53,778 nucleotides of DNA from a virus (lineage: Duplodnaviria > Caudoviricetes), in the IMG/VR virus record IMGVR_UViG_3300032373_000013, positions 1 through 53,778 of that record; one strand, 5' to 3'. Of the stretch, positions 3,123-53,778 are shown in pieces. Below the pieces are notes generated by a model. It was not told the DNA's origin and searched no databases. It was given only the letters and a program-made list of their open reading frames with translations. A program made the position numbers and the translations under genes. The stretch's first letter is position 1. Each line of letters starts with the position of its first letter.

Positions 3123-3391
3123 GTGAGATCAAACCCCGCGAAGGTCCGTGCCGTAACCGTGAAGGTCTCTTCCTTGAGATCCTCGCCGTCGGCTTCGGTA
3201 TGACGGACTTCGACGCACCCATCGGCGACAAGGATTGGCAGCGGCACAAGTGCCTCCGAGCCCTACGTAAAGTCGAAGCCCTCTGGCGCTATGACGCCAA
3301 GGTCCATAGCGACACTATCCGTGATGCGTTGAAGCGCAAGAAAGCCCGCGAAGAGGGGGAGAGCGGGAAAGTACGGGACAGCGCGCAGTGA
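3119..3391 (+). CDS. Hypothetical protein
   Basis: ATGA overlap at 3119; last gene before an AT-rich gap. Confidence 0.55.
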   Translation: MSEIKPREGPCRNREGLFLEILAVGFGMTDFDAPIGDKDWQRHKCLRALRKVEALWRYDAKVHSDTIRDALKRKKAREEGESGKVRDSAQ

Positions 3392-3492
3392 CATTTTTTA
3401 CGAGAAATATCTTGCGCTAGGAGCCAACCTCCACCCGTACACCCCGCTTCGCGTCAGCGGCGGGGCTTGCGACGGACGGAGGACGAAGCCCC

Positions 3493-14730: not shown

Positions 14731-16289
14731 TGGTTGCGATTGCCGCAAAAATGCGCGGGGTGGTGCCGTCTCTACAGTTTCAGGGGCAGCTCTATACACG
14801 ACTCATGCGCCCCTTCTTCGAGGAGCGCTTCGACGAGCTAGACGACGAGTATCTAGTCGAAGGGCCGACCGGCACAGGTAAGTCGATCGGGATCGGTGCA
14901 CTGTACCGCTACATGCTGCGGGAGTACCCGGGCTGCAACCTTCTCGTGATGCGTCAGGTAAAGGCTGACCTCTCGGGTTCGTTCATGCAGATGTGGGAAG
15001 AGGAGGTGCTCGAGACGGGGGATGTGTGGGACGAATGGATGCTCCACGGGGGCACAGGCAAGATCCCGGCGCATCAATCAAGGTCGATCTACCGCTACCC
15101 GAACGGTTCGAAGCTCTGGTGCCTGGGGATGAACCAGTGGGCGCGCTTCAAGTCGAAGGCGTTCGACGCCATCTGGCCAATGGAGATGACGGAGTTCATC
15201 GAGGAGCAGATCGAGGGACTCCACACGCGCCTTCGCGCCCGCCGTGGGTCACCGTTCCCGAAGCGGATGATGATCGGGGACGTGAACCCGGAGTATCCGG
15301 ACCATTGGGCGAACCAGCGGGCGATTCGGGGCATCTCGACGCGAATCGAAACGACCCTGAAGGACAACCCCGGGTACTACGACCTAGAAAGGCGTGAGTT
15401 CCGCGAGGAGGGTTCCGACTACCTGTCTCGCCTAGAGCGCACGATGCGCGACCCCGTGCGTCGATCGAAATACATCGACGGGGTTTGGACGGCGAACGCG
15501 GGCCAAATTCTCCCATTCGATAGCACTCGGCAGACGTTCGACGGGAAGGTCGAGGCTGTACCGGGAAAGGGCTACCGCATCGTTATCGAAGGCCCGCGTC
15601 ATCCTGTGCTCGGTAGCGAGGTGTGGCTGCGAGGATTCGGCGCGTCGTTCGATTGGGGCTCCGCTCACGCGGGCACGCTTCAGGTGTGGGGGCTCGATGA
15701 GGAGGGGCGGCAGTACCTCATTGAGGAGGTCTACCACTCACGCAAACCGCACTCGTGGTGGGCTGATTGGGCCGTGCAGTTCTGGGAGAAGTACGACCTT
15801 CAGTTCATCGTCTGCGATGGTGCCGGTAACGGCGCACATGACGTGTTCAACGAGCGACTGGAGCAGAAGGCGGGCCCAAAGGCACGGATTGCCCGGCTCT
15901 GCCGCAAGCGCCAAGGTTCGCGTCAGCGCACGAACATCGAGATCCTCCAGGACCTCTACCACGATCAGCCCGACGGAAAGCCGGGCATCTTCATTCGCCG
16001 CGAATCCCTCGCGCACGAGCCGGACTACGAACTCTCAGGCAAGCCGAAGAAGCTCGTCGAGGAGATTCCGCAGTTCGTCTACGCGACGGTGCGGGATACG
16101 GGCGACCGACGCGGACGAGCGGTGGACCGCGCCGAGCAAGGCGTTGCGGACGATGGTCTCGACGCTTGCACCTACTTCCGCGTGCACGTAATCGGGGGCC
16201 GCGGCGTGACGAAGCAGGTCCCTGATGCGCGGAAGACGAAAAACATCCACGAGTTGATGCGCGAGCACTACTGGAAGGACGTGGGATGA
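14730..16289 (+). CDS. terL: Terminase large subunit
   Basis: Walker A EGPTGTGKS, Walker B variant AIWPMEMTE, GDVNP coupling motif, nuclease SFDWG and DDGLDA; start GTG 14730 or ATG 14751. Confidence 0.92.
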   Translation: MVAIAAKMRGVVPSLQFQGQLYTRLMRPFFEERFDELDDEYLVEGPTGTGKSIGIGALYRYMLREYPGCNLLVMRQVKADLSGSFMQMWEEEVLETGDVWDEWMLHGGTGKIPAHQSRSIYRYPNGSKLWCLGMNQWARFKSKAFDAIWPMEMTEFIEEQIEGLHTRLRARRGSPFPKRMMIGDVNPEYPDHWANQRAIRGISTRIETTLKDNPGYYDLERREFREEGSDYLSRLERTMRDPVRRSKYIDGVWTANAGQILPFDSTRQTFDGKVEAVPGKGYRIVIEGPRHPVLGSEVWLRGFGASFDWGSAHAGTLQVWGLDEEGRQYLIEEVYHSRKPHSWWADWAVQFWEKYDLQFIVCDGAGNGAHDVFNERLEQKAGPKARIARLCRKRQGSRQRTNIEILQDLYHDQPDGKPGIFIRRESLAHEPDYELSGKPKKLVEEIPQFVYATVRDTGDRRGRAVDRAEQGVADDGLDACTYFRVHVIGGRGVTKQVPDARKTKNIHELMREHYWKDVG

Positions 16290-38765: not shown

Positions 38766-38875
38766 CTAGTTGCGGGCCTTCCACCCGCTCGGCTTGCGCT
38801 TGCTACCCGCGCCCTTCTCCCTTCTCGAAAAGTGTGAAAGGTGATGACTCTTTCCCTACGGCGCGGGCGTGCTCG

Positions 38876-39287: not shown

Positions 39288-40937
39288 CTAACCCTGGGCT
39301 AGACAGGTCGATGAAGAAACTCCGGTGATCGCCACGTAGGCGTCCTCCGGAGTGGTTGCATTAGCCGGGGCGCGCATCGTGTACGTGCGGTCCGTGCTCC
39401 CGTCGCTTGCTACGAGGTACTTGTCACCGTTTGGCATCTGGACAAGTGCGCGCGAGATAGAGCCCGCGGATTCGTTCCATGATTCGATCAGCACTGAGTC
39501 AATCGACAGGAGACGTGCGTCCGCGTCGACTAGGTATCGCTCCCATCCATATCGCTCGATCATGATGCGGCGCACCTCCGCATGGCCCTCGCCAGCGATC
39601 ATCGCGACCGTGATTGACTCGGGTTTCTCGACGACATCGCGCGGTACACGCACGCCCTCGATCGAGTAGATCGCAAAGCCATCCGACCAGCGCATTGCGG
39701 GTCCATCGAGGCAGTGCAGAACGGGTTCCCCGGCGCGATTCACGCCGCGATGCACCTCGATAGGAGCGTCCGAGGCTACGGCGAACTCCTTACAGCCCCA
39801 CCAATGCCCAAGCTCCCAACATTCATCGCGCCATGCCAGTGCTGCGGCATGTGCAGGACCGTCGAGTACAAGGCCGCACACTTCGATGTAGAAGAGCCGC
39901 CAGGCGCACCAGGCCGACCAGTTACGGGCGCCCATGTAGAAATGCCAGTTTGAACGCACCTGGGCGCGCACCTGGTCGTGCACCTGGTCGTACACCTGGG
40001 CGTGCACCTGGGCGCGCACCTGGTTGTACACCTGGGCGCGCACCTGGGCGTCCACCTGGGCGTCCACCTGGTCGTACACCTGGGCGTGCACCTGGGCGCG
40101 CACCTGGTCGTACACCTGGGCGTCCACCTGGGCGTCCACCTGGGCGTCCACCTGGGCGTGCACCTGGGCGTCCACCTGGGCGTCCACCTGGTCGTACACC
40201 TGGGCGTCCACCTGGTCGTGCACCTGGTCGTACACCTGGTCGCGCACCTGGTCGCGCACCTGGGCGTCCACCTGGTCGTGCACCTGGTCGTGCACCTGGT
40301 CGTACACCTGGTCGCGCACCTGGTCGTCCACCTGGGCGTCCACCTGGGCGCGCACCTGGTCGCGCACCTGGGCGTGCACCTGGTCGTACACCTGGTAGTG
40401 CACCTGGGCGCGCACCTGGGCGTGCACCTGGTCGCGCACCTGGGCGCGCACCTGGTCGTCCACCTGGTCGCGCACCTGGTCGCGCACCTGGGCGTCCACC
40501 TGGTCGTACACCTGGGCGCGCACCTGGTCGTACACCTGGGCGTGCACCTGGGCGCGCACCTGGTCGTCCACCTGGGCGTGCACCTGGTCGCGCACCTGGT
40601 CGCGCACCTGGGCGTGCACCTGGTCGCGCACCTGGTCGCGCACCTGGGCGTCCACCTGGTCGTACACCTGGGCGTACACCTGGGCGTGCACCTGGGCGCC
40701 GCTCTTCCTACGCATGTAAGCAACGGCTGGACCAGAGGTCAAAGCGGCGTATGGAGATGGGACGAACACTACAGCCCGAGGGGGCGCTAGACCTGCCGCA
40801 ACGTACTTGCGGTGCAATGCATCTCGCGCGGCATCATGGTCGATCGGCTCCGTGGAATACGCACGGTCAATCCACTTCTGCGCGTAGCCCGGGAGCTGCG
40901 CTTCCTGACCCGGTGTCAGTTTCCCGATGTACTTCAT
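39288..40937 (-). CDS. DUF6745-type protein with about 62 QVxx tetrapeptide repeats
   Basis: Start MKYIGKLTP at 40937; C-terminal LHCLDGPAMRWSDGFAIY..EGVRVP...EVRRIMIERYG. Confidence 0.8.
   Translation of the reverse strand: MKYIGKLTPGQEAQLPGYAQKWIDRAYSTEPIDHDAARDALHRKYVAAGLAPPRAVVFVPSPYAALTSGPAVAYMRRKSGAQVHAQVYAQVYDQVDAQVRDQVRDQVHAQVRDQVRDQVHAQVDDQVRAQVHAQVYDQVRAQVYDQVDAQVRDQVRDQVDDQVRAQVRDQVHAQVRAQVHYQVYDQVHAQVRDQVRAQVDAQVDDQVRDQVYDQVHDQVHDQVDAQVRDQVRDQVYDQVHDQVDAQVYDQVDAQVDAQVHAQVDAQVDAQVDAQVYDQVRAQVHAQVYDQVDAQVDAQVRAQVYNQVRAQVHAQVYDQVHDQVRAQVRSNWHFYMGARNWSAWCAWRLFYIEVCGLVLDGPAHAAALAWRDECWELGHWWGCKEFAVASDAPIEVHRGVNRAGEPVLHCLDGPAMRWSDGFAIYSIEGVRVPRDVVEKPESITVAMIAGEGHAEVRRIMIERYGWERYLVDADARLLSIDSVLIESWNESAGSISRALVQMPNGDKYLVASDGSTDRTYTMRAPANATTPEDAYVAITGVSSSTCLAQG
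39954..40697 (-). repeat. 12-bp tandem repeat CAGGTG-NNC-NNC, about 62 units
   Basis: Uninterrupted cacctg-spaced array on the + strand. Confidence 0.97.
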
Positions 40938-40939
40938 GA

Positions 40940-41377
40940 TCAGAACGGCGTGTCGTTCGGGTCGTTGTAGCTGCCGCCCGTGTCCCCGTACCCGGAGTCG
41001 CCGCCGCCGTACATCGAGCCCTGCTGACGTTGCTGTGGGGGAGAGGTCTCGCGTGACTGCTCGCGGTCGGACTTCGCACCAACGAACGTCCAACGGAACG
41101 CTTTGAAGACGATCCGGGAACGCTTCTGCCCGTCCTTCTCCCAGCGCTGTTGTTCGGGCTCACCCACGACGAACGCCAAGTCACCCTTGCTGTGGTACTT
41201 CGCGAAGTTCGTCGCCTGGTCGCCAAATATGACGCAGTCGAAGAAGCTCGGCACGTCCTCGCCCTTGCTCTTCCTGTTCACGGCGATGGCGAACTGGCAC
41301 ACGACCGTTCCGCGCGCGTCTTTGATCTCGGGGTCACGGACAAGGCGTCCGCCAATCTGGAATGCTGAGAAGTTCAT
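40940..41377 (-). CDS. ssb: Single-stranded DNA-binding protein
   Basis: GRLVRDPE...FAIAVNR...FFDC..FG..A; acidic DTPF tail. Confidence 0.95.
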   Translation of the reverse strand: MNFSAFQIGGRLVRDPEIKDARGTVVCQFAIAVNRKSKGEDVPSFFDCVIFGDQATNFAKYHSKGDLAFVVGEPEQQRWEKDGQKRSRIVFKAFRWTFVGAKSDREQSRETSPPQQRQQGSMYGGGDSGYGDTGGSYNDPNDTPF

Positions 41378-42135: not shown

Positions 42136-43058
42136 GACGCCTTCACCTCCGGGCTCGGTGCCGCCTTCGGCAGTTGCGGGATCGCGCGGAGAGATCGGAC
42201 GCCGCGCTTATTCGTCCTGAACGAGAACGCATGCGCACCGTCCTCGGTAGAGCCCCAAGCGGCGGAGCCCATGCGTTGAATCAGGCGCGCTTTCGCCGCC
42301 TTCTCGGCGTCCTTAGCTGTGTCGGCTTGGGTCTTCGCCGCGACGTATGCGCCCGCCTCTTCGATGGGCAGCGTGACCGTGCGCGGTTCGTCGTCTGGGT
42401 GCAGCTCACGTAGGAACGACTCGTCGCGACTGACCGCGACAGGCTCCACTTCGTCGATGATGTGGCGTTGCCACCACGAGCGCACAGCGTCCTCGATCTC
42501 GCGTCGCCGTTCGTCGGTGACGATTACTTCCGTCGATTGCGTAAGGTCGTCCTCACGCGCAGCGGGCGGCATCAGTGCACAGACGAATCCGCGCCGCAAT
42601 CCGCAGATGGCAAGGTATGCCTCGACCTGGTGGATGTAATGCTCTGGGCACACGCCTGGCGCCCACTGGTCACGCGTGTAGAAGCTAGGCGCCTTGCCCT
42701 CCCAGATGCAGACCTCGCCCGTCATTGGATCCGTGACGAAGCCGTCGGGAGAACCCATGAGGTAGGGGATATCGGGATGGATCGCGAGGCGACTGTTCAG
42801 ATCCACGGGCATACCCGTTGCAACCTCGAACTGCTGCGCCGCGACGGGCTCCATTACGTTTCCCCAGCGCATGAACGCGTTCTCCTCGTCCACTCGACCG
42901 CCACCGAGTTCCAACACTCGGTAGTAGATATCGAGCGCGGTGCGGTACGCGGGGAGGCCAAGGACTGCGGCGAGGTCGGTGCCGGTGATGGCCTTGCGCC
43001 GGATGTCGTGCCACTCGGCGGAACCGTGCACGATGTCGGTGAGGTTGAAGTCACTCAC
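42132..43058 (-). CDS. YqaJ-like viral recombinase/exonuclease
   Basis: W...RRKAITGTD, MRWGNVMEP, GSPDG, WEGK, HYIHQV..YL. Confidence 0.92.
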   Translation of the reverse strand: MSDFNLTDIVHGSAEWHDIRRKAITGTDLAAVLGLPAYRTALDIYYRVLELGGGRVDEENAFMRWGNVMEPVAAQQFEVATGMPVDLNSRLAIHPDIPYLMGSPDGFVTDPMTGEVCIWEGKAPSFYTRDQWAPGVCPEHYIHQVEAYLAICGLRRGFVCALMPPAAREDDLTQSTEVIVTDERRREIEDAVRSWWQRHIIDEVEPVAVSRDESFLRELHPDDEPRTVTLPIEEAGAYVAAKTQADTAKDAEKAAKARLIQRMGSAAWGSTEDGAHAFSFRTNKRGVRSLRAIPQLPKAAPSPEVKAS

Positions 43059-43348
43059 GACGCCACCCTCCCCTCACGCTTCGCTGCCTCGAACGTCAGG
43101 CGGCCGAGGTATGCAAAGTGGACGAGCCTGTTGTGCGACAGGATCGCCTCACGATCGAGTAGTTCGTCGTAGCTGGAGCCGTCAGTCTCGCCCGCTTCAA
43201 TCGCGCGATCCGCAGACACGCACGCGTACTCGCATCGGTAGCCGCATGCGGAGCACGCGACTTGAAGCAGCTTGTGACTGCCCCTGCCCGTGTTGATGCC
43301 GCACGCCTCGTTGCACAGCGGGCACGGCTCGATCTGCGGGAAGTTCAT
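43055..43348 (-). CDS. Small Zn-ribbon protein (Lar-like pattern)
   Basis: PCPLC...VACSACG...AI..HN. Confidence 0.55.
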   Translation of the reverse strand: MNFPQIEPCPLCNEACGINTGRGSHKLLQVACSACGYRCEYACVSADRAIEAGETDGSSYDELLDREAILSHNRLVHFAYLGRLTFEAAKREGRVAS

Positions 43349-43734
43349 GCCGCCCTCCCAACTTCGTAAGCGGCATCCTGGAGGTCACTTTCCAGCAACA
43401 CGTAGAACGCGTGCGCAATGTTGCGGGGGATGCAACGGCCCGGTGCGGGCTCGATGAGTTCCGAGAACACGAGTAGCCCGAGGCTACGATCGCGCTCCCA
43501 GTCTTCGACGGCGTCCGCGATGAACGTGAACCACGAGGCCACGCCATCGCAGTCAGCCCACTCCGCATCGTCCGTCTTGAAGTCGTACGACTCAGGCGTG
43601 CCTTCGCAGCCGAAGGTGATATCCACCGGCCACCGGATCCCCGCGTACGTGACGACGGTTTGCAGTGGCGATTCATTGATCGTGAACCGCCGCTCGAAGG
43701 CCGCGAGGTCTACAGCGTCAACGATGTTCGTCAC
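43345..43734 (-). CDS. Hypothetical protein
   Basis: GTGA/ATGA coupling. Confidence 0.6.
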   Translation of the reverse strand: MTNIVDAVDLAAFERRFTINESPLQTVVTYAGIRWPVDITFGCEGTPESYDFKTDDAEWADCDGVASWFTFIADAVEDWERDRSLGLLVFSELIEPAPGRCIPRNIAHAFYVLLESDLQDAAYEVGRAA

Positions 43735-43970
43735 AGCGACACCTCCGACGCGAGCTGGAGGAGGATGAACAGCGTCGCTTCGATCGCGACCAGAAGCGCA
43801 GCGCCGATCAGCGCCGCCGCAGCGAGAATGCAGACGTCCCCGAAGGTCAGTCCACGTCGCGCGTTACTGGAGTCGCCCGACTGTAACAGCGCCCACGAAG
43901 GCGCAGCCGTTCGCGCACTTTGCGCAACGGCGGTGGGGGCGGTAGCCGCCCCGGAGGAGGGTTTGAGCAT
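43731..43970 (-). CDS. Small membrane protein, first gene of the leftward arm
   Basis: C-terminal hydrophobic helix. Confidence 0.5.
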   Translation of the reverse strand: MLKPSSGAATAPTAVAQSARTAAPSWALLQSGDSSNARRGLTFGDVCILAAAALIGAALLVAIEATLFILLQLASEVSL

Positions 43971-44348
43971 AGGTCATCACGTAGTAGTGCCCGAGTGATT
44001 AGCTCGAGCGGACACCCACACCTTCGGCTGCGGGGCTTCCGCAGTCAACGTCAATCCCGAAAATGCGGGAGAGTTGCGCACGTCGTTACTACCCTGCGCG
44101 GCACGCGGGGCTGGACCGAGCATTGGTCACACGGGTCCCGCGAGGGCTTCGGTCCGGCTAGAACCCCCATCGCGCCGTTGAAGCGGGGCTGATTACCCCG
44201 TGGAGGGGCGGTGGGGGCGACGGCTTCGGTTGCAATTCGGTGCTGCTCAGGTCGAGTCGAGTGCAGCTACGGGCTACATTTCTACCCACCGCTAGGTCGA
44301 TGGTTGATGCAGACTGGAGCGCACTGGCAGACCAAGTGGCCCCCGACG

Positions 44349-44594
44349 ATGAATGAACTTGACGACATGAAGCGCGTCTTCGACGCCCACCGGGCGGAGT
44401 GGATCGAGCAAGGCCGAACGGGCCAGTGGGCGCTGATCGGACCGGACGGCCCGGTTGACTTCTTCGTTGAGTACGTCGAGATCGTCAAAGCTGCCGCTCG
44501 ACTGTTTGGCAATGGCCCCTGCCTGATCCAGCAAGTGCTCCCTGAGGATCCCATCGAGATCATTCAGCGCGTGGACTTCAGCGCGTTCGCGTGA
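44349..44594 (+). CDS. DUF5678-like small protein
   Basis: Likely ATG 44349; F..HR.EW....GQWALI....V.FF..Y.E....A...FG..P.LI.QV pattern. Confidence 0.7.
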   Translation: MNELDDMKRVFDAHRAEWIEQGRTGQWALIGPDGPVDFFVEYVEIVKAAARLFGNGPCLIQQVLPEDPIEIIQRVDFSAFA

Positions 44595-45112
44595 CCGGAA
44601 ACCCTCAGCAGCGCCGATTGGGTGGAAAGAGGGGCGGCAAGGGTAAGAAGCCCCCCAAGGTGCCCGACGCTCTCAGGATCGGCGGAAAGATCGAGAATGA
44701 CGCGTGCTCGATCAAGCTCCACATCTTCAACCCGCTCGAGGCTGGGGGCGTGAAGGGCCAGCAGCCGCCTCGACTCTTCAAGGTCAAGGCCATCATCGAC
44801 ACGGGGGCGACCTCGACGACGATCAGCGCTCGTTTGGCTCAAAAGATCGGCATCACCGGACACACCCGTATCCGTGTGGGGACTGCCGCTGGCGAGGTCG
44901 ATGGTTGGCAGGCACCGGTCGGTATCGCGTTCCTCGACCTCGAGACAGGGCGGACCGTCTCGCGCGTGCAGCCGATGGCGATCATGCCGATGCACGACGA
45001 CGTCCTATTCGGCATGTCGGACATCGCGCAGGGACGGCTCGTGGTGAACGGTGAGGCTGGCGAATGGAAGTGGATCTTGCCCGGCGGCAGTGTCGGCAAC
45101 CCGAAACCGTAG
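44591..45112 (+). CDS. Retropepsin-like (clan AA) aspartyl protease
   Basis: AIIDTGATSTTIS catalytic motif, TAAG flap, DVLFGMSDI; GTGA-coupled to the upstream gene. Confidence 0.88.
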   Translation: MTGNPQQRRLGGKRGGKGKKPPKVPDALRIGGKIENDACSIKLHIFNPLEAGGVKGQQPPRLFKVKAIIDTGATSTTISARLAQKIGITGHTRIRVGTAAGEVDGWQAPVGIAFLDLETGRTVSRVQPMAIMPMHDDVLFGMSDIAQGRLVVNGEAGEWKWILPGGSVGNPKP

Positions 45113-45331
45113 TCACGAGAAGCGGCCGACGATGAGCGGCCCCCAGCGCGCGATGCGCCGAGGGCCTGGGCGTTCGGGAAGAACGGCGAGCGGCGGTTGA
45201 CGCCACCGCACGCAGCGCCCAGATGAGAGGCGCCCCCGCTTGAAGTCTGCCGAACCACGCCAGTGAACGTCACGGTTTCGACGTAAGCGTGTAGCGTGAG
45301 GCGGCACCCAAACTCTCACGAAGCGCCTGCC

Positions 45332-45838
45332 ATGGTTCGACCCCTTGCTATCGCGTGCCTCCTTCTGGCGGCGTGCACTACGACTGGTTCCGTTCTCGAG
45401 ATCGGCCGCGATACCTTCACGGTGTCGGGTCGAAGTGAGTGGGGTTCAGGCAAGGCGCGAAGCGCGGCGATCAACGCCGCCAACCGATACGCCGCGGAGC
45501 GGGGGATGCGTATGAAGGTCGTGACGATGCAGCCCGGGTGGGACCGTGACGCTCTCGGGGATCGGTGGTACACGATGGATCTAACCTTTCGTGTGATCCC
45601 GCAGGATGACCCCGAGTATCAAACGCGTCCAAACCTCATCCCGAGCCAGCGGACGGTGATTACGCACGAGAACGCGCCTCCTGCGGCGCCGCCACAGGCT
45701 GCTCAATCGACCCCGAAGCCTGGAGGGGATGTTGACGCCTACCTCCGGGGACTACTGGAGCGCGGTGAGATCACTCCAGAGCAGTACGGGCGCCTCGTTG
45801 CCGAGCGCCTCGGTGTGACGGGCGACGACGGCGAATAG
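45332..45838 (+). CDS. Lipoprotein with C-terminal SHOCT-like motif
   Basis: MVRPLAIACLLLAA|C lipobox; IGRDTFTVS; LLERGEITPEQY. Confidence 0.75.
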   Translation: MVRPLAIACLLLAACTTTGSVLEIGRDTFTVSGRSEWGSGKARSAAINAANRYAAERGMRMKVVTMQPGWDRDALGDRWYTMDLTFRVIPQDDPEYQTRPNLIPSQRTVITHENAPPAAPPQAAQSTPKPGGDVDAYLRGLLERGEITPEQYGRLVAERLGVTGDDGE

Positions 45839-46054
45839 GCGTCCGCGAGGTTTCCTCCGAAAACCGTGACGGGTCGTCGCAGGCCATACGTTCGGCTCGG
45901 TGCCCCCGGGTAGACGGGCCGCGGCGCTCCCGTGGAGAGACGACGCCGCGGCCCTAGTGGCATTCCTAGGAATGGCGACGAACGTGTGAGACCGCCGCCG
46001 CAAGCGTCCAATGAAAGGCGCCTCCGCGCCAATTGTTCCACTTGTGCTCATACC

Positions 46055-46079
46055 TGGAAAGATAAGCACGGAGTATCTA
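46055..46079. promoter_or_regulatory. Repeated quasi-palindromic site, copy A: TGGAAAGATAAGCACG-gag-TATCTA
   Basis: 22/25 identical to 52250-52274; AGATA...TATCT arms; about 40 bp upstream of ORF 46117. Confidence 0.7.
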
Positions 46080-46116
46080 CTCCCCAGGAGCGCAAACAGT
46101 CGGTATCACCAGGCTT

Positions 46117-46812
46117 GTGATGGATCACGAATGCAACATGCCACTGTCGGGTCTGTTCACAGAGGATCGCCAGCTACTTAGGCTGGCTGCCGGAGACCCG
46201 GTGCGGGCCCTTGCGTACATCGACTCGGTGCGGTGGGTAGAGGGCGCTGATTGCCCCTCGTGCGGCAGCGAGGACACCTACGCCATTACCGGCCGGAGTG
46301 GGACGGCGCGCAAGACGGTGGCATGTCGAACCTGTCGACACCAGTTTGGATGGCGAATTGCGACCCCATTCGCCGGAACGCGCGTTCAGCCGGAGCACGT
46401 CCTATACGCCGTTGCGGGTCTCCTCGATGGGGACCGACCCGAAGTTGTCGCGGTAGACGTAGAGCGCGAGTTTGGCTGTGGGGTGCGTATGGCGCGACTG
46501 GTCCTGAATCGTGTCCTCATGCTCCGCGCAAGCCTCAATGGCCTTGGAGCGGACGACGAAATCGACCAGAAGGAAGTCGTACGGTGGCTGCCGGTGGCTG
46601 CGATTGCAGCAACTGCGACCATCCTCGTTTGCACTGCGTTCTTCGCGCCGAGCGCCCGCGCCGTAAACGAGCTTAATACGCACTGGACTTTCAACGGCGA
46701 CACCATGTCCCATCGAACCATCGCGTTCGTAGAGGAGTCATACTGGGACCTCACGCGCCGCCACGCTCGCGAGGTGGCGCAGATCAAGGGCCACCTCAAC
46801 AGCAGAGATTAG
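46117..46812 (+). CDS. IS1595-transposase-like Zn-ribbon/HTH fused to a TM helix and an unrecognised C-terminal domain (no DDE domain)
   Basis: ALAYIDSVRW..G..CPSCG...CRTCRHQF...TPFAGTR...VEREFG....ARLVLNRV, then WLPVAAIAATATILVCTAFFA. Confidence 0.78.
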   Translation: MMDHECNMPLSGLFTEDRQLLRLAAGDPVRALAYIDSVRWVEGADCPSCGSEDTYAITGRSGTARKTVACRTCRHQFGWRIATPFAGTRVQPEHVLYAVAGLLDGDRPEVVAVDVEREFGCGVRMARLVLNRVLMLRASLNGLGADDEIDQKEVVRWLPVAAIAATATILVCTAFFAPSARAVNELNTHWTFNGDTMSHRTIAFVEESYWDLTRRHAREVAQIKGHLNSRD

Positions 46813-46814
46813 TC

Positions 46815-47099
46815 ATGTCTGGAGTCCTCTCCACGCAATTCGACTGCAACGGAACACGTACCACATGGGCAACCGCTCGGGGGAAGAACCCCCTAGAGCC
46901 CATTCTTGACTTTGCCGACCGTCACAGCGACGAAGTGAAGGACGCCAAGCTCGATTGCAGCAGCAACGTCATCGCGCTCCCGTCGATCACCTCAACGTGG
47001 GAGAGCGACATCGGCACGACGACGTATGGCTCGGATGACGGTCAAGCACAGCACGATTTGGACGTCATCGAGATCCAGAAGGAAATTCCCCCTGCGTAG
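46815..47099 (+). CDS. Small acidic protein paralogous to the C-terminal domain of ORF 46117
   Basis: Starts 2 bp after the upstream stop; shares LxT..NG....T...E...D...RH..EV...K. Confidence 0.7.
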   Translation: MSGVLSTQFDCNGTRTTWATARGKNPLEPILDFADRHSDEVKDAKLDCSSNVIALPSITSTWESDIGTTTYGSDDGQAQHDLDVIEIQKEIPPA

Positions 47100-47325
47100 C
47101 TAACTCAGTGACGGGTAGGTGTTTGAGCCTCGCGCGATCCCCCGTTGATCAAGGATTTGCGCTACGGCGGGTAGCGTGCCCGTGCGCCGCTTTCTACGTT
47201 GCGGATGTCGAGACCTACTCGGAGTGAGATCCGACTCGGCGTCCAATGAAAACCGCTCTGCCCAAAGCGGCAGCCCCGTATCGCACGGGTTCTCCGCACT
47301 CCGACCGTCGTCGGCCCACGCTCGC

Positions 47326-47586
47326 ATGAGTGGGGTCGACGGCAACTCGTCTGCGCCCGAGGCGGCGACGATCGACGCGAAAGAGATCGCGTCCATCATC
47401 GGTATGACCGTGGCGACCGTCCGCGAGTGGCGGAAGCGCACGTGGATTCGAGAGCCGATCGACCGTCCGGCGAAGGGGTTCGCGTGGTGGCGCGTCGAAA
47501 TCTACGAGGACCTTGGCCGCCGTGGGTATGGACCGTGGGCGCACAAGTACGCGCCTAGTTCATCTGACCAGCGGGGGACGTCATGA
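47326..47586 (+). CDS. Excisionase/AlpA-like HTH protein
   Basis: IDAKEIASIIGMTVATVREWRKR...P; ATGA overlap with the integrase. Confidence 0.7.
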   Translation: MSGVDGNSSAPEAATIDAKEIASIIGMTVATVREWRKRTWIREPIDRPAKGFAWWRVEIYEDLGRRGYGPWAHKYAPSSSDQRGTS

Positions 47587-48935
47587 CTCCTCCGCGCGGG
47601 CTCGATCAGGGCATCCTGAAGAAGGTCAACGGGGTATGGATCTTCACATACACCGCCATCGACAAGGCTGGAAAGCGTTCGCGCGGCTCTCACACCCTCG
47701 GGCCGTCTAAGCGCATCGCTGAGGCCGAAGCCAGGAAGCTGATCGATAAGCGCAACGAGCGCCTGTACGGAGTCGGTCCCGACGAGCGGCCTAACGAACC
47801 GTGGCGCCCGTGGCTTGAGCGTTGGCGCACTTCCTATGCCAAGGAGCGCGGCGATCTCAATGCACGCAGGTCCGCGGCACGCCTGGAGCGTGTGCTCGAT
47901 GGAGTCGACGCCGTCAGCTTCGGCGACATAACGATCGGAGCGGTGACGCTCTACCTGGACGAGCTGAGCGATCGTTTCAGCGCCTCCACCGTGAACGACT
48001 ACATCGCGAGTCTCCGCGTGTTCCTCTCATGGTGCGTGCAGCGCGAGGTCATCCCCGAGGAGAACGCAATCCGGCCGAAGTACCTCAGCGTGAGCGGTGC
48101 TCTCGAGCGTCCTGAGTTCACAGAAGAGCAGGTTGCAGCGATCTTCGCCGCTGGACGGGCGCGAGACGCTGCGGCTCGGCGGAACTGGGGCGCGTTTGGC
48201 TCCGGCAGTCATGGCCGACTGAAGTACGCGCAGCCGTTCCCACGGATGCACACGATCGAGTTCCTAACGCTGACCATCAGTCGGCCGGGGGCCGCGCGGC
48301 AGGTGCGAAACTGCGATGTCTACCGTGAGCCGGAGAAGCGCTTCGTGCACTTCCGCGCGGCGACGATGAAGGCGAAGAACGACGTCTACGTGCCGATTGA
48401 GGGAGCGCTCGAAGAGCTGATCGATCGCATCGACGCGACCCACCTTGAGATCACTGGGCGCGTAGGGCGCCCGGAGGAGACTCTGCTCCGCTCACCGGCG
48501 GGTCTCCCGTGGACGAAGAACTCCCATCCGCTCGTGAAGTGGTTCCAGTCCGCGATGAAGGACGCGGGGATCGAGAAGGAGGTCCCGGGGTTCAAGGATC
48601 GCGACGTGTACTGCCTTCGCGGCTTTGGCGTGACGCGGATGTTGCGTGCCACACGCGATCCCGTGCTCGTGGCGAAGATCGGCGGCTGGACGGACCCGAA
48701 GGTCATGCTGAGGCACTACGAGAAGCTGAACCTCGGTGACACACGCGAAGCCATCGGCGCGATGCAGTTGCCGACGGGAATCACGGAACAAATCGCTGGC
48801 GAGGCTCCGGACGCCGGGTCGGGAGGCGCACGCGCACCCCCTAAGTTCTGCCGACGTCTCGGCTTGCGACGGCGGTTGCACTCACGGCGCAGCATGACAA
48901 GTGCCGAGAGAATATCTCCTTCGCCTCCCCATTGA
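47583..48935 (+). CDS. int: Tyrosine recombinase (integrase)
   Basis: SASTVNDYIASLRVFLSW core-binding region; catalytic R (SRPG), K (MKAK), YCLR, GGW...RHY. Confidence 0.9.
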   Translation: MTPPRGLDQGILKKVNGVWIFTYTAIDKAGKRSRGSHTLGPSKRIAEAEARKLIDKRNERLYGVGPDERPNEPWRPWLERWRTSYAKERGDLNARRSAARLERVLDGVDAVSFGDITIGAVTLYLDELSDRFSASTVNDYIASLRVFLSWCVQREVIPEENAIRPKYLSVSGALERPEFTEEQVAAIFAAGRARDAAARRNWGAFGSGSHGRLKYAQPFPRMHTIEFLTLTISRPGAARQVRNCDVYREPEKRFVHFRAATMKAKNDVYVPIEGALEELIDRIDATHLEITGRVGRPEETLLRSPAGLPWTKNSHPLVKWFQSAMKDAGIEKEVPGFKDRDVYCLRGFGVTRMLRATRDPVLVAKIGGWTDPKVMLRHYEKLNLGDTREAIGAMQLPTGITEQIAGEAPDAGSGGARAPPKFCRRLGLRRRLHSRRSMTSAERISPSPPH

Positions 48936-49191
48936 CCTCCTAGCTATGTCAATGCGAGACAGAGGTAAACCGCGCCATGTCGAGGTAAGTGAAGCGGAAC
49001 GTCGCCATACCGCGGCGTTTAGGTCGGACCGGACAGCGCTAAACCGCTGCATCTAGATCGACGTCGATGCAAACGCCTGTGAGCGTTTCAACGAACAAAT
49101 CGGCCTGAGACCAGGTCGCCACCGCACCGCGTGACTGGGGCCGCACCCCTAGTCGCGCACCCCACACCACGTGCCATCCCGAGGGGAAGGT

Positions 49192-49683
49192 ATGCCCACA
49201 AAGAAGGACAAGAAAAAGGACCGAAAGCTCCGCCAGGCCGCGCGGCTCTACCGCCAGGCGGAGATCACTCTCGAAGAGGCGGCGCAGCTCTGCGGCGTCA
49301 AGCCCTCGACGCTGCATAAGTCAATGGCGGACGGGGGGGAGCAGCTCCGCCCGCGCGGATGGACGCGGAAGCTAACCGACGCCGACGAGAAGGAGATCCT
49401 CAAGCTCTCGCGAGCCGGGAAGACCGTCGCTGAGATCGCCGAGGCTACGGGCTGGGCGTCGTCCACGATCAGCCGCGTTCGCTCGCGCCATGGATTCGAG
49501 CGTCCCAAGTCGCGGACGCGGATCTACGACGCCGACGGGGAGCTTCTCAAGAAGCGGTGCCCTGCGTGTGACCGTCTCCGCCTGGCGAAGTTCTGGGCGA
49601 TGAACGCGGCGTCGAGTGACGGGCGTCAGGGCTACTGCAAGAGCTGCACGAAGGAGCGCAGGGACGCGGGGAGGGCGGCGTGA
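49192..49683 (+). CDS. HTH DNA-binding protein with C-terminal Zn finger
   Basis: Two HTH-like segments (LEEAAQLCGVKPSTL; VAEIAEATGWASSTISR); CPAC...CKSC. Confidence 0.75.
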   Translation: MPTKKDKKKDRKLRQAARLYRQAEITLEEAAQLCGVKPSTLHKSMADGGEQLRPRGWTRKLTDADEKEILKLSRAGKTVAEIAEATGWASSTISRVRSRHGFERPKSRTRIYDADGELLKKRCPACDRLRLAKFWAMNAASSDGRQGYCKSCTKERRDAGRAA

Positions 49684-49898
49684 TCAAGCGCTTCGCCCGC
49701 AAGGGCGTTGAGTTCTCCGCGACCGACATCTGGCGCGCGATGAAAGGCAAGCCCGACCCGTCGCAACGACGGCGCATTGGCTGCCTGTTCCGTGAGGCGA
49801 AGGACGCGGGCGTCATCGAGCACGCGGACATCCGGCGCACCAAATCCCCGACCCGCAAAGGCGGTCTCGAACACGTGTGGCGCGGAGTGCGCCGCTAG
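49680..49898 (+). CDS. Small basic winged-helix-like protein
   Basis: FSATDIW...IGCLF..A...GVI...VWR; GTGA overlap. Confidence 0.6.
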   Translation: MIKRFARKGVEFSATDIWRAMKGKPDPSQRRRIGCLFREAKDAGVIEHADIRRTKSPTRKGGLEHVWRGVRR

Positions 49899-49994
49899 CA
49901 ATCAAACACGTCCGGCGTCGTGTTCGCGAGATGTGCTCGCGATGACGCCGGACGCTGAACGGGGCGCAGTTTCGCCCCACCCCACAGTAACGAC

Positions 49995-50321
49995 ATGCAG
50001 ATCATTCTGGACGACGACGACATTCAGCTCTTCAACTCTTCGATGGCACGCCTGGAGCGCAATGGGAAGGGCAAGAACTGGTTCGCGACAGGCGAGTTCG
50101 CACGTGAAGTCAGGCGTGCAACTCGGGACGAGTTGTTGGCGAAGGGCGTGAAGCTCAAGACGCGCGGCTGTGCCCGAACACTGAGCCGCGCACAGGCGAT
50201 CGAGGCGTTCAAGTTGCGCCGTGACGGCTTCACGTGGAAGGAGTTGTCCGAGCACTTCGATTGCTCTGAGTCGGCAGTCAGGACGGCCTACCTCGCACAC
50301 GTCGAATCGATCCTCCTCTGA
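49995..50321 (+). CDS. Small protein with C-terminal HTH
   Basis: LRRDGFTWKELSEHFDCSESAVR. Confidence 0.7.
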   Translation: MQIILDDDDIQLFNSSMARLERNGKGKNWFATGEFAREVRRATRDELLAKGVKLKTRGCARTLSRAQAIEAFKLRRDGFTWKELSEHFDCSESAVRTAYLAHVESILL

Positions 50322-50358
50322 TCCCACCCACCCCCTCAACCCCAACCCCTGAACTGAC

Positions 50359-50571
50359 ATGAGACCTCTCGAACTCGACACGGAACCGAAGGGCTGCTCA
50401 CAGAAGCGATCCGGGCGCAAGCTCGAGGAATCTGAATGCAACCGCATCGTAGCGGAGTACCTGGAGGGCGACGAAGACGCGGCGACGATCGCAGTGCGGC
50501 ACTCGGTGCGTCGCGCGGTCGTCGAGCAACTCGTCGGCCGCCACTACTTCCGCCAACGGAGGTCAGCGTGA
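50359..50571 (+). CDS. Small HTH-like hypothetical protein
   Basis: IVAEYLEG...TIAVRHSVRRAVVEQLV. Confidence 0.55.
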   Translation: MRPLELDTEPKGCSQKRSGRKLEESECNRIVAEYLEGDEDAATIAVRHSVRRAVVEQLVGRHYFRQRRSA

Positions 50572-50774
50572 GCGACATCAAGGTGACGTGCCGCGGCTGC
50601 CAGGAGCGGAAGTGCGCGGAGACGGCGTACGAGTACGAGCGTGGTCAACGCCGACCTGAGTGCAAGGCGTGCGAACGCCAAGGTGAGCGAGAGCGCAAGG
50701 CGCGTGCGACGCATGGGCTGGCCGCGCGTCTCGACTCCCGGAACATCGCCTTTTGGGTGGGGAGTGTGGGGTGA
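50568..50774 (+). CDS. Small Zn-finger protein
   Basis: GGAGG RBS; CRGC...CKAC. Confidence 0.6.
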   Translation: MSDIKVTCRGCQERKCAETAYEYERGQRRPECKACERQGERERKARATHGLAARLDSRNIAFWVGSVG

Positions 50775-50777
50775 GCG

Positions 50778-51311
50778 ATGAGTCTCCAGACACGCTACCA
50801 GCTAACGCGGCACTTCGACGGACCGGACGATGGAACGACGATGGCATTCGTCATGCTCAACCCGTCCACAGCGGACGAGCATGTCGATGACCCGACGATC
50901 CGCCGATGCGTTGGGTTCGCGAAGCGTGAGGGGTTCTGCGGCATCCGCGTCGCGAACCTGTTCCCATTTCGATCGACCGACCCGAAGGGTCTGTTGGACT
51001 GCGGTGTAAGTGGCCTCTGCTCCACAGAAGAGGAGATGAGCGCATGGCGCGGCGTGACCTATGGGCCTCGAACGTGTACGACCGTCGTCGCTTGGGGCTC
51101 GCCGCGCTCAGGATCGCTGCGCACGTTGATCGAGAACAAGGCGCGGCTGTTCACCGCATGGGCTCACACGTTCGACATTGCGCTGCACTGCCTCGGCACG
51201 ACGAAGGATGGACACCCACGGCATCCGCTCATGCTTCCAAGGGGCGCAGAGCTGCGCCCCTGGGACGCGACCGGCATTGGGTGCCCGGCGCAGGAGTCCC
51301 CCGATGCCTGA
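50778..51311 (+). CDS. DUF1643 family protein
   Basis: FVMLNPSTAD...DDPTIRRC..FA...NLF..RSTDP...VAWG...HPRHPL. Confidence 0.92.
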   Translation: MSLQTRYQLTRHFDGPDDGTTMAFVMLNPSTADEHVDDPTIRRCVGFAKREGFCGIRVANLFPFRSTDPKGLLDCGVSGLCSTEEEMSAWRGVTYGPRTCTTVVAWGSPRSGSLRTLIENKARLFTAWAHTFDIALHCLGTTKDGHPRHPLMLPRGAELRPWDATGIGCPAQESPDA

Positions 51312-51522
51312 CGGCATCAATCTCCAGCGCTGGTACCCGGTGCTCTCCGGAGGGCGCGCACGTCTCGGCCGACGTAATGCGGAAGGCGATCGCCGCTTCG
51401 CGAACTCTCAGTCGGTCTACCTGGCGCGCGATGTGGACTTGGTCTTCCGGTTGCTCGTTGAACAACTCGCAGAGGCTCGCGGTTCGAAGGACGCGGGGCG
51501 GGGGGTGAAGACCGATGTCTGA
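51304..51522 (+). CDS. Hypothetical protein
   Basis: AGGAG RBS; in-frame ATG 51304. Confidence 0.5.
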   Translation: MPDGINLQRWYPVLSGGRARLGRRNAEGDRRFANSQSVYLARDVDLVFRLLVEQLAEARGSKDAGRGVKTDV

Positions 51523-51892
51523 CCCGACCGAACGCGAGACGTGCCCCCGGTACGACTGGGGCTACGACGGCATGGAGCAGGATGCCGATGGGCTCTACGT
51601 CGATGCCGAAGAGGTTGTGAGCCGCGACGAGAAAATCGCGGAGCTGGAGCACCAGCTTGAAGTCGTGCGTATCTACAGCCGAGACATGGAATGGCTGTCG
51701 GTCGAGCTGATAGCAGAACGCGACGAAGCCCAAGCGAAGCTCGCGGAGGTAATCAAGGACCGCGACCTCACATCAGGAGGACCAGCCTTGCATCGAGGTG
51801 GGCCGGACCACGTCATTAAGGTGACGCCGGATTGGTTCGATCGATGCGACGCACTCTTGGCGCGTCCTACACGGGAGGCTGACCATGGGTAA
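51515..51892 (+). CDS. Hypothetical coiled-coil protein
   Basis: MEQDADGLYV motif; operon packing. Confidence 0.65.
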   Translation: MSDPTERETCPRYDWGYDGMEQDADGLYVDAEEVVSRDEKIAELEHQLEVVRIYSRDMEWLSVELIAERDEAQAKLAEVIKDRDLTSGGPALHRGGPDHVIKVTPDWFDRCDALLARPTREADHG

Positions 51893-52166
51893 CGTCCTCG
51901 GCCCCGACCCCGTCGTACAGCTCGTCATGCACGGATGCTGGTTCTGCGCGGACACCGCCAGAGTCTGCATCCACTGCGCCCACCCCGCGGACACCTTTCC
52001 ATGCGGGAAGTACAACCGGAAGCTCGGCACGTGTCCTGAGTGCAGCGGCAAGCGCCAGCCGCGCCCGAACGTCTCACGCTTCCTCGCGGACGTCTACGCG
52101 CCGAACAAGCGGTACGCCGGGATGAAGCGCCCGACAACCGACAGCCGCAAGGGGAGGGCGTCGTGA
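51885..52166 (+). CDS. Cys-rich hypothetical protein
   Basis: GGAGG RBS; CWFC, CIHC, CPEC. Confidence 0.6.
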   Translation: MGNVLGPDPVVQLVMHGCWFCADTARVCIHCAHPADTFPCGKYNRKLGTCPECSGKRQPRPNVSRFLADVYAPNKRYAGMKRPTTDSRKGRAS

Positions 52167-52249
52167 CGATCGCAGTCCTCATCGGATTCGGGGCATTGAT
52201 CGCCATCGCTCTTGACGCGGCGGAGGCGGAGGTGAGTGACGCTCTATCG

Positions 52250-52274
52250 TGGAAAGATAAGCACGTGCTATCTA
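52250..52274. promoter_or_regulatory. Repeated quasi-palindromic site, copy B: TGGAAAGATAAGCACG-tgc-TATCTA
   Basis: AGATA(A)GCACGTGCTATCT is a near-perfect palindrome; matches 46055-46079. Confidence 0.7.
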
Positions 52275-52561
52275 TACGACCGATCGGTTTACTAACCGAT
52301 ACGAGATCCGGGTTTTGCTTGCAATCTGGACACGGACACGTATCAATCGTGGTGCGCAGAAAAGCGCGCACCCCGCACCCGGCGACAACCGGGGTACGGG
52401 GTACTTCGACACCTGGAACTAACAGGGGCCGCGAATGCGGTCAATATCATGGCTGAGAGACATGACGGGCTCAACCGCGAGCCCGAGACTACGCGCACGG
52501 TCCGTCTAGGGGAAGACCCCGAACGGATGGCTAACGCCCATGTAGTCCAGGAGCTTCATTC

Positions 52562-53602
52562 GTGAGCACCTGCTCCTGCGCCTCCAAGGGCCGCCCAGAG
52601 TGGTTCCCGTTCCACGCGGCGGACTTCCTGAATTCAGACACCTGCGCCGATGTGAACGGCGTGGAGCGCGCCCTCTACGCGCTGATGCTCGTCCTGGCCT
52701 GGAATGGCCCCGGGCTCCCCGCGGACCGCAGACGCCTCGCGAACCGCCTCGGTGTGGACCGCGAGCAGGTGGACGACCTCCTCGATGGCCCAGTCGGCGA
52801 GAACTGGTTCGAGTGCTGTGGAAAGCTCTGGAACGAGCGCATGGAGGAGCAGCGGGTGAAGGCTGAAGCGCGCTCCAAAGCGGGGGCGAAAGGGGGCAAA
52901 GCGAGCGCCGAAAAGCGCCGTCAGAAGGCTTCCAGGAAAGCCTCGGATCCAACGACCGTTCAACGACCGTTTAGAACGACCGTTGAACGACCGTTGAACG
53001 ATCGTTTAGAACGACCGTTGAACGACCGTTCAACGACCGTTGAACGACCGTTCGAACAGATAAGAGGAGAGGAGATAAGAGAAGAGACACTCCCTAGCGG
53101 GAGTGTAGGCGCGCACGCGCCCGCGGAAGGCCAATCCAAGCTCGGGAAGGCACTGGGGGAGGCGCTGGAGCCGATACCGCCCGAGGCCGAGGATGCGCTA
53201 CGGCTCTGGGCCGAGCACCTGACCGAGCGTGTCGGGGCGTCGAGGGGCGTCGCGTACTGGCGTGGCGAACTCAAATCCGCAGGACGCGACCCAGCGGTGT
53301 ACGCCCAGCGTGTGGCGTTCTCGATCTCGAAGGACGCGAAGTCCGTGCTGGCGCCGAAGTCGGACGAGCTAGCGGCGTTCCTCGGCGAGCAGGATTCCAC
53401 GGCACTCGCGGCGCCGGGCACAGGCGGCGTCGAAGCCAAGCATCTCCCGTTCAACGCGAAGTCGGACATCTGGGAGGCCAAGCAACGCGAGGATCGCCGA
53501 CGTCGCCTAGCGGCAATCGACGCCGCCGAAGCCGCTGCGGCCGAGCCGCGCCTCGTCAACGTCGAGCCTCCCCGTCCACGTCTCGCCGGGGGTGACCGCT
53601 GA
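52562..53602 (+). CDS. Replication initiator, DUF1376/YdaU-type N-terminus (lambda O analogue)
   Basis: PEWFPFHAADFL...ERALY..ML..AW...LP....LA...KLWNERM; AGGAG RBS; internal iterons. Confidence 0.85.
   Translation: MSTCSCASKGRPEWFPFHAADFLNSDTCADVNGVERALYALMLVLAWNGPGLPADRRRLANRLGVDREQVDDLLDGPVGENWFECCGKLWNERMEEQRVKAEARSKAGAKGGKASAEKRRQKASRKASDPTTVQRPFRTTVERPLNDRLERPLNDRSTTVERPFEQIRGEEIREETLPSGSVGAHAPAEGQSKLGKALGEALEPIPPEAEDALRLWAEHLTERVGASRGVAYWRGELKSAGRDPAVYAQRVAFSISKDAKSVLAPKSDELAAFLGEQDSTALAAPGTGGVEAKHLPFNAKSDIWEAKQREDRRRRLAAIDAAEAAAAEPRLVNVEPPRPRLAGGDR
52951..53052. repeat. Nine iterons AACGA(C/T)CGTT; probable replication origin
   Basis: Copies at 52951, 52962, 52975, 52986, 52997, 53010, 53021, 53032 and 53043, followed by a purine-rich tract. 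Confidence 0.85.
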
Positions 53603-53778
53603 TGGGTGCCCATAACGACCCGCTGAACGCGCTGGGATTCACCGACGTGAACGGCCAGCTCGAGAAGCTCGCGAACGGCTACGGCCGCAACGAGCCGAAG
53701 GACGCGATGGTCCACGTCTGGGTTGCGAGGCTCCGTGAGTCGCGTGTGAAGCCCAAGGAGCTAGAGGCCGCCGCGGAC
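53602..53778 (+). CDS. 5' part of the junction-spanning ORF (continues at 1-466)
   Basis: MGAHNDPLNALGFTDVNGQLEKLANGYG reads into the repeat. Confidence 0.7.
   Translation, partial: MGAHNDPLNALGFTDVNGQLEKLANGYGRNEPKDAMVHVWVARLRESRVKPKELEAAAD
53649..53778. repeat. Terminal direct repeat (right copy)
   Basis: Matches 1-130. Confidence 0.97.

Follow-up and report, generated by a model that had tools for sequence, protein, structure and literature searches.

A 34-bp site repeated ahead of the integration/excision and replication modules of an uncultured phage is a probable control element

How might excision and the start of replication be switched together in a temperate phage? The question is raised by IMG/VR record IMGVR_UViG_3300032373_000013, a viral sequence of 53,778 nucleotides (nt) that was analysed whole and is called the window here. 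A preliminary description of the window, made from the letters alone, had drawn attention to a site that occurs twice: before the transposase-like open reading frame (ORF) 46117 and before the leader of a replication initiator gene. On balance, the data favour the reading that this site is a shared operator/promoter coupling excision and replication through a putative binding protein. The observation of the site is real and its function is probable; in kind, it is an ordinary type of phage feature.

The site had been written as GCTC-N5-TGGAAAGATAAGCACG-N3-TATCTA, and both copies are present (Table 1). Each contains GCTC, five free bases, the identical 16-mer TGGAAAGATAAGCACG, three free bases and TATCTA. 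The two are direct repeats on the same strand, 6195 nt apart, and 27/34 positions are identical without gaps. At up to three mismatches, the 16-mer has exactly two matches in the genome, both on the plus strand and 0 in reverse, with no third copy; in shuffled sequences the mean count is 0.21, and two or more matches occur in 2/100 shuffles. The pattern AGATA-N9-TATCT has three matches at up to one mismatch, of which the two exact ones are the sites (0.21 expected; three reached in 0/100 shuffles). TGGAAAG-N12-TATCTA has seven matches at up to three mismatches against 2.62 expected. It is exact only at sites 1 and 2, and no third copy in the genome has fewer than two mismatches. The term quasi-palindromic, which the preliminary description had applied to the site, is apt for AGATA...TATCT, the sole dyad that both copies share. 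It holds weakly because the longer palindromes differ between the copies, GGAGTATCTACTCC in site 1 and AGCACGTGCT in site 2.

What makes the pair distinct is its composition and place, not its identity. Six 40-nt patches in the genome have a GC content of 42.5% or less; sites 1 and 2 occupy two of these, and the AT-rich flank of the origin another. Among 34-nt segments with at most 50% GC, of which the real genome has 1779, the best real pair reaches 27/34, and the best pairs in 104 shuffles reach 22-24. This restriction was picked after the data were seen, and the true significance therefore lies between those of the whole-genome and low-GC tests.

The setting of the two copies suggests that they are recognised as DNA. 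Open frames run across sites 1 and 2, each in a different register relative to the repeat, which excludes a shared peptide as the cause of the similarity. The minimum-free-energy RNA folds are also unlike: that of site 1 leaves the 16-mer unpaired, that of site 2 pairs part of it, and the latter fold is no better than those of shuffled sequences (z -0.31). Both sites lie upstream of genes, on the strand of those genes, in AT-rich DNA that looks non-coding. A cis-regulatory role is therefore the best reading of the site, and this part of the operator idea in the preliminary description, a role upstream of both genes, is kept here.

In the mechanism proposed, the 34-bp element would act in cis, as double-stranded DNA, to control transcription: it would be an operator or an activator site, next to a promoter or overlapping one. 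One copy would head the integration/excision module and the other the replication module, made up of the leader, an upstream ORF and the DUF1376 initiator with its iteron origin. One sequence-specific protein would read a bipartite, largely asymmetric site composed of a 16-bp block, 3 free bp and a 6-bp block; identical blocks of 16 and 6 bp with free spacers suit recognition by such a protein. Both processes, excision and replication, would thereby come under one switch, kept off in the lysogen and turned on at induction. We infer that a protein binds, that its binding controls transcription, and in which direction that control runs. The interval between the sites encodes several DNA-binding-type proteins (Pfam, PHROGs), and the candidate binders within it are ORF 46117, the Xis-like ORF 47176, the double helix-turn-helix (HTH) ORF 49171 and the HTH ORF 49995. 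ORF 46117 takes a small share of this expectation as the predicted binder. If the site is a shared operator, one sequence ties excision to the start of replication in an uncultured high-GC temperate phage, and the 34-bp element becomes a defined probe for finding the regulator.

Sites shared by several promoters are familiar from other phages, as in the lambda CII sites at pI, pRE and paQ, the Cox boxes of P2-type phages and the stoperators of cluster A mycobacteriophages. The present site resembles these in that a short repeat heads linked operons, one for integration and one for another early function. Like the stoperators, it is asymmetric and oriented with transcription. Unlike all of these sites, it has only two copies and no recognisable -35/-10 elements, is missing from the divergent early control region, and is unrelated in sequence.

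Several observations weigh against the shared operator/promoter. By identity alone, the pair is marginally at the edge of chance: the genome contains five exact 16-mer pairs and none of 17 nt (a tandem array at ~39.8-40.7 kb excluded), a second pair, in GC-rich coding DNA, likewise reaches 27/34, and 27/34 or better was attained in 1/22 shuffles that keep local composition. A consensus scan of positions 43000-53778 returned 0 sigma-70-like sites, and no -35/-10 pair fits the shared bases. The centres of the AGATA and TATCT arms are 14 bp apart, an unusual spacing for a dimeric HTH repressor. The divergent intergenic region at 43971-44210, where an immunity repressor is expected, holds no third copy. 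With only two copies and no usable relatives, there is no support from conservation. Finally, a complete integrated element on contig C6 of the Planctomycetota genome G001 (G001:C6, below) has no distal copy of the DNA upstream of its ORF 46117 paralogue and no two-site layout.

Table 1. Coordinates of the two sites and of associated features in the window
Feature	Position	Strand	Details
Site 1	46046..46079	+	GCTC ATACC TGGAAAGATAAGCACG GAG TATCTA
Site 2	52241..52274	+	GCTC TATCG TGGAAAGATAAGCACG TGC TATCTA
GC-rich hairpin, terminator-like	45916..45954	+	11-bp stem GGGCCGCGGCG/CGCCGCGGCCC after ORF 45296-45838; found by eye and by folding
ORF 46117	46117..46812	+	231 amino acids; N-terminal region ~10-140, membrane helix ~151-176 (predicted), C-terminal domain ~181-228
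ORF 46815	46815..47099	+	94 amino acids; starts two bases past the ORF 46117 stop
Xis/regulator-like ORF	47176..47586	+	136 amino acids; phrog_66, E 3.5e-4; annotation weak; precedes the integrase gene
Tyrosine integrase	47583..48935	+	450 amino acids; phrog_1, E 2.1e-24; start overlaps the Xis-like ORF
Probable phage attachment site (attP) region	48936..49170		placed only by synteny with the integrated G001:C6 element
Structured leader	52275..52561	+	287 nt; z -4.19, equalled in 0/100 shuffles
Replication initiator	52562..53602	+	346 amino acids; DUF1376, primosomal-protein PHROGs
Origin-like region	52951..53106	+	inside the initiator gene
Large terminase	14541-16289		
Erf-like and RecE-like recombination genes		-	
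tRNA-Asn		-	one gene; AT-rich patch 38814-38854 just upstream

The gene directly behind site 1 bears on who might read it. The transposase-like label that ORF 46117 had been given fits its N-terminal part, in which residues 31-76 match Zn_ribbon_IS1595 (PF12760, E 1.5e-9); DDE_Tnp_IS1595 (PF12762) has no match in the ORF. This part corresponds to the zinc ribbon and the helical region that precede the DDE domain in IS1595 transposases. An exhaustive search with ORF 46117 gave 299 representatives at E <=0.001. All 38 relatives that were scanned carry the zinc ribbon, and 3/38 carry the DDE domain. Over its full length, the protein aligns with 21 relatives that share the N-terminal region, a variable linker, a hydrophobic helix and a C-terminal domain of ~50 residues, in which W190, E207 and R215 are invariant. 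The Kyte-Doolittle mean over 19 residues is at least 1.6 in 21/22 aligned sequences, ORF 46117 counted. The product of ORF 46117 is predicted to be membrane-anchored and belongs to a conserved family that travels with xis-int (below). Its G+C content at third codon positions (GC3) is below the 0.72 cut-off, and it may be a more recently acquired gene.

The AlphaFold model of ORF 46117 is confident (mean predicted local distance difference test score 84.7); Foldseek returned nothing from the PDB at E <=0.001, and the best VIA-align result (Z 5.4 over 50 residues) matched no solved structure. As leads only, the ESM Atlas aligns residues 15-166 with IS1595 transposases at a template modelling score of 0.45-0.49 and suggests that short DDE-less zinc-ribbon proteins are common, phages included. 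In a lookup of 20 clusters, two were named, both 'transposase' from Planctomycetota metagenome-assembled genomes. The portions of the literature available to us held nothing on DDE-less PF12760 proteins. In layout, the protein is like ToxR, CadC and anti-sigma factors, with a cytoplasmic N-terminal region of nucleic-acid-binding type, a single membrane helix and, beyond it, a small domain; the folds are unrelated. A full IS1595 transposase or insertion sequence (IS) was considered and rejected, as the DDE domain is missing and the sites are direct repeats, not terminal inverted repeats with 8-bp target duplications.

As a special case of the shared operator, the DDE-less IS1595 region of ORF 46117 could bind IS1595/ISSod11-like sites and thereby regulate its own operon and the initiator. 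We consider this unlikely, even as the best surviving of the specific alternatives. In its favour, everything that lies N-terminal to the DDE domain in IS1595 transposases is present, site 1 lies directly before the gene, and an asymmetric 16-bp block would suit a monomeric, two-part region of transposase type over a symmetric dimer. There is also a precedent in InsA of IS1, a zinc-finger/HTH N-terminal product that binds the IS1 ends and represses. ORF 46117 resembles InsA and the end-binding N-terminal parts of transposases in being an IS1595-type N-terminal region without a catalytic domain. It differs from InsA in adding a membrane helix and a C-terminal domain, and the phage sites differ from IS ends in being direct repeats 6.2 kb apart without target duplications. 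The direct orientation and the membrane helix in 21/22 aligned sequences both count against ORF 46117 as the binder. So do two findings in G001: the site is missing from the paralogue loci, and the G001:C6 element has no distal copy of its upstream DNA.

The IS-end resemblance does not rescue this candidate. The minus strand of the site reads CGTGCTTATC and fits nnnGcnTATC, which we take to be the end pattern of ISSod11-type elements; no ISSod11 end consensus was found in the parts of the literature at hand. The fit had been offered as a sign of IS-end-like identity, a part of the operator idea that is not supported here: with 18 occurrences of GCNTATC expected in the window, 11 are present, and the pattern is no commoner than chance. 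TATC-type ends do exist in IS1595-family elements of Planctomycetota, of the form ...TG(G/C)GTATCGG..., which speaks for ORF 46117 as the binder. They are seen in a five-copy element of genome G065 (inverted ends, 8-bp target duplications, ends CATGGGTATCGGG...) and at the ends of single elements in G265 (CCTGGGTATCGGG...) and G253 (CTGCGTATCGGCC...). The comparison with IS1595 ends that the preliminary description had called for leaves just TGCnTATC in common between these ends and the site minus strand CGTGCTTATCTTTCC. By phmmer, ORF 46117 is closest to the transposases of G134, G137 and G248 (39-34 bits), not to those of the TATC-type elements, among which G265 scores 23 bits and G253 and G065 are not reported at E <=10. 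Neither ends nor inverted repeats were found for the G134, G137 and G248 elements, each of which is single-copy in its genome. With GCNTATC no commoner than chance, little shared with real ends and the kinship elsewhere, the IS-end argument therefore adds nothing. What still speaks for ORF 46117 is its position: the gene directly downstream of site 1 encodes a protein of DNA-binding type.

The inner part of the inverted ends of the G065 element reads (A/G)ACGACCGTA and shares the 8-mer ACGACCGT with the phage iterons; this concerns one IS only and may be a coincidence.

A more elaborate version would have the membrane-tethered, catalytically dead IS1595 N-terminal region bind its own promoter and that of the initiator, with an envelope signal or release from the membrane switching excision and replication. 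This is rather improbable, a shade more so than binding by ORF 46117 as such. If true, a domesticated end-binding module of a transposase would have been reused as a regulator of phage lysis and lysogeny.

Among 301 Planctomycetota genomes, 44 match the ORF 46117 family profile at E <=1e-10, and a full-length match occurs only in G001; all nine of the scanned best matches outside G001 are ordinary DDE-bearing IS1595 transposases. Genome G001 holds three full-length paralogues. In all three loci, the next gene is a small ORF with a match to the C-terminal-domain part of the family profile (E 1.8e-4 to 6.7e-4), and after it comes an HTH protein that by eye is of Xis/AlpA type. HTH_17 matches this third gene weakly in two loci (E 0.0017 and 0.0026), with no match in the remaining one. 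A tyrosine integrase then follows (E 2e-7, 1.6e-10, and 0.0078 where the locus is cut short). The phage has the same four-gene order of zinc-ribbon protein, small C-terminal-type protein, Xis-like HTH and integrase as all three G001 loci. When 46 phage proteins were compared with 80 kb of G001 (C6:1-60000 and C43:1-20000), only ORF 46117 matched; the linkage therefore spans otherwise unrelated elements. DUF1376 has no match in G001, and the control genomes are equally without a match, which makes this negative uninformative. As a lead, the site ranks behind the cassette in which a membrane-anchored zinc-ribbon protein is joined by its small paralogue, xis and int; this cassette points to an unstudied accessory of integration modules that is now testable.

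One of the G001 loci belongs to the integrated element introduced above, which spans G001:C6 ~1585-40490 (38.8 kb). A direct repeat of at least 37 nt, itself a portion of tRNA-Cys(GCA), marks both of its ends. The paralogue and the integrase lie at one end of the element, and the attachment repeat abuts the integrase end. By synteny, the phage attP is therefore probably located at 48936-49170. The best match to the DNA upstream of the paralogue within this element is 25/30, a local duplication 232 nt away.

In the phage, the module behind site 1 comprises ORF 46117, ORF 46815, the Xis-like ORF and the integrase gene, all on the plus strand. Site 1 itself is placed just downstream of the terminator-like hairpin and 37 nt before the start of ORF 46117 (GTG/ATG); this position, at the head of a module with recurrent gene order, favours the shared operator/promoter. 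ORF 46815 matches the family profile for the C-terminal domain (E 5.3e-5) and ranks second among the six-frame ORFs behind ORF 46117; BLASTP of ORF 46815 against ORF 46117 gave no match. The Xis-like ORF has no Pfam match, and the integrase is below the cut-off there (Phage_integrase, E 0.0038). In runs X2, X3 and X4, 136 nt of the Xis-like ORF (window 47344-47481) are replaced by 145 other letters.

The element could instead be a promoter for a non-sigma-70 holoenzyme, directed by a factor of extracytoplasmic function (ECF) type or by a phage-directed specificity factor and without a dedicated repressor. This possibility is doubtful, and about level with the membrane-tethered switch. Near-identical promoters of 20-25 bp are typical of phage-specific transcription, TGGAAAG loosely recalls the ECF -35 box GGAAC, and ORF 49171 and ORF 49995 have sub-threshold or borderline matches to Sigma70_r4_2 (E 8.2e-6 and 4.9e-4). 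These region 4 matches, however, lie under stronger generic HTH matches, and no sigma region 2 or RNA polymerase appeared in Pfam (44 ORFs of the window) or PHROGs (48). The spacing is also at odds with known promoters: GGAAA and TCTA are separated by 15 nt, less than the spacing of ECF promoters, and GG-N8-GC misfits the GG-N10-GC of sigma-54. More broadly, consensus sequences for sigma-54, sigma-28, sigma-E/ECF, DnaA boxes, integration host factor (IHF) and parS were compared by hand and rejected for a misfit of spacing or sequence. The sections of the literature accessible to us contained nothing on promoter motifs of Planctomycetes.

A chance repeat in two AT-rich patches, with no function of its own, is somewhat less plausible again. 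The five exact 16-mer pairs and the 1/22 shuffles described above suit this explanation, as do the restriction to two copies and the lack of conservation data. Against it, 0/104 shuffles of low-GC segments exceeded 24/34, both copies have the same orientation and stand at the heads of modules, and a strain variant alters spacer positions only, at low depth. This variant comes from metagenome runs that contain the phage or its kin: X1 has the entire window and is the probable source of it, and X2-X4, from another study, contain stretches of it at high identity. The variant itself is a 308-nt X2 contig over 45843-46123 that departs from the window at two positions, 46052 in the N5 spacer of site 1 and 46072 in the N3 spacer. 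Every shared position of the site is kept; the depth of the contig is 3.8, and either difference may therefore be an error. A high-depth loose end at 46058 in X2/X4 was set aside as noise, an ~18-nt match known from bin depths.

Searches for more distant copies were made with both DNA and protein. GenBank phages include no close relative by either. In IMG/VR, no relative was found with ORF 46117, the initiator, the integrase or a five-sequence alignment, and JGI metagenome contigs gave no match to ORF 46117 or to a motif of 22 specified bases. A terminase search found two short fragments (11.7 and 13.5 kb), neither with the site motif. The 16-mer alone occurs in 49 IMG/VR contigs, once in each and in 0 with TATCTA; these are therefore chance hits. 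Word-based protein searches returned only the window's own proteins and one weak DUF1376 match.

Could the copies be recombination sites, att-like direct repeats that enclose a 6.2-kb insert or deletable segment? They are direct repeats with an identical 16-bp core, they flank the integrase gene, and the lowest GC content by kilobase in the genome is at 46001-47000 (0.605). The preliminary description had argued against such sites from the differing spacers, and rightly so: the similarity resumes beyond the non-identical spacers on both sides of the core, unlike that of attL/attR. The position of attP given by the G001:C6 synteny and the core early genes that lie in the interval also speak against it. 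A test for loss of the interval had been suggested; in the contigs of four runs no joined form spans 46.0-52.3 kb, and contigs cannot show rare forms. Recombination sites are accordingly a very improbable explanation.

Equally remote is a role at the RNA level, in which the element would be an antitermination site of nut/put type, with GCTC resembling part of boxA and an AGAUA...UAUCU hairpin resembling boxB. In its favour are two copies on the transcribed strand, sequences that recall boxA (CGCTCTAT in site 2, TGCTCATA in site 1) and the hairpin-rich leader behind site 2; against it are differing folds, a common stem of five weak pairs with a 9-nt loop, and no Rfam family match there.

Under the shared operator/promoter, site 2 would head the replication module. 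Site 2 lies inside an open frame at 52040-52456, which runs on from a GTG at 52163; the GC3 signal of this frame fades at ~52230, after a very strong signal in the gene at 51885-52166. Both this fading and the folded leader favour the shared operator/promoter. The GTG of the initiator is 287 nt downstream of site 2. The intervening leader contains a 38-codon upstream ORF (52449-52565), the stop of which overlaps the initiator GTG (GTGA). A minus-strand terminator-like hairpin is also present in the leader, at 52378-52366. From these leader features taken together, the initiator may be under antisense or translational control.

That a replication initiator follows the second site, as had been proposed, is upheld by its DUF1376/primosomal-type matches and by its iterons: PF07120 matches at E 9.4e-7 with 29.6 bits, just missing the cut-off of 30.1, and phrog_9327 at E 2e-13. 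Nine 10-nt iterons occupy 52951-53052, eight of them AACGACCGTT and one AACGATCGTT, in groups of two, three and four that are separated by TAG, with a spacing of ~11 bp within each cluster. A purine/AT-rich stretch with two AGATAAG (53058 and 53073) follows the iterons, and then a hairpin at 53087-53106. The iterons and AT-rich stretch within the initiator gene recall the initiators of lambda O type and iteron-plasmid Rep systems; in contrast to the promoters of those systems, site 2 is not an iteron. Just past site 2 stands ACGACCG, which resembles the iteron core. This heptamer is common, however, with 32 matches in all (21.7 expected), of which 24 fall outside the iterons, and autoregulation through it is therefore not shown. 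AGATAAG beside the iterons was rejected as a linked signal, with four in the genome and four reached in 6/100 shuffles, and is regarded as a side effect of the AT-rich patch. The 'tRNA-Pyl' that ARAGORN reports at 52957-53045 is an artefact of the iterons.

Contigs of X2 and X4 leave the window sequence after 52116, upstream of site 2. These strains therefore carry different DNA in place of the window's replication module, and the block that starts near site 2 acts as a module of its own, a further point in favour of the shared operator/promoter. The two variants also lack 378 nt of the DUF1643 gene (window 50850-51229).

The window has bases 1-130 repeated at 53649-53778 with 99% identity, and is therefore probably a complete, circularly assembled genome of ~53.65 kb. 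Its GC content is 61-69%, described overall as 64%. With a tyrosine integrase and recombination genes, the phage looks temperate, and its host may be a planctomycete. The majority of its proteins have no family assignment in Pfam or PHROGs.

Two further AT-rich patches, at 3380-3433 (after the minus-strand ORF 3454-3960) and 38814-38854, may be control regions; neither is related to the site by sequence. The minus-strand ORF 39288-41093 encodes 601 amino acids with DUF6745 at the C-terminus; ~60 tandem 12-nt units at 39825-40800 give the protein a four-residue repeat. A retropepsin-like aspartyl protease (gag-asp_proteas, E 2.1e-11) is encoded at 44591-45112 in the early rightward operon, two genes before ORF 46117.

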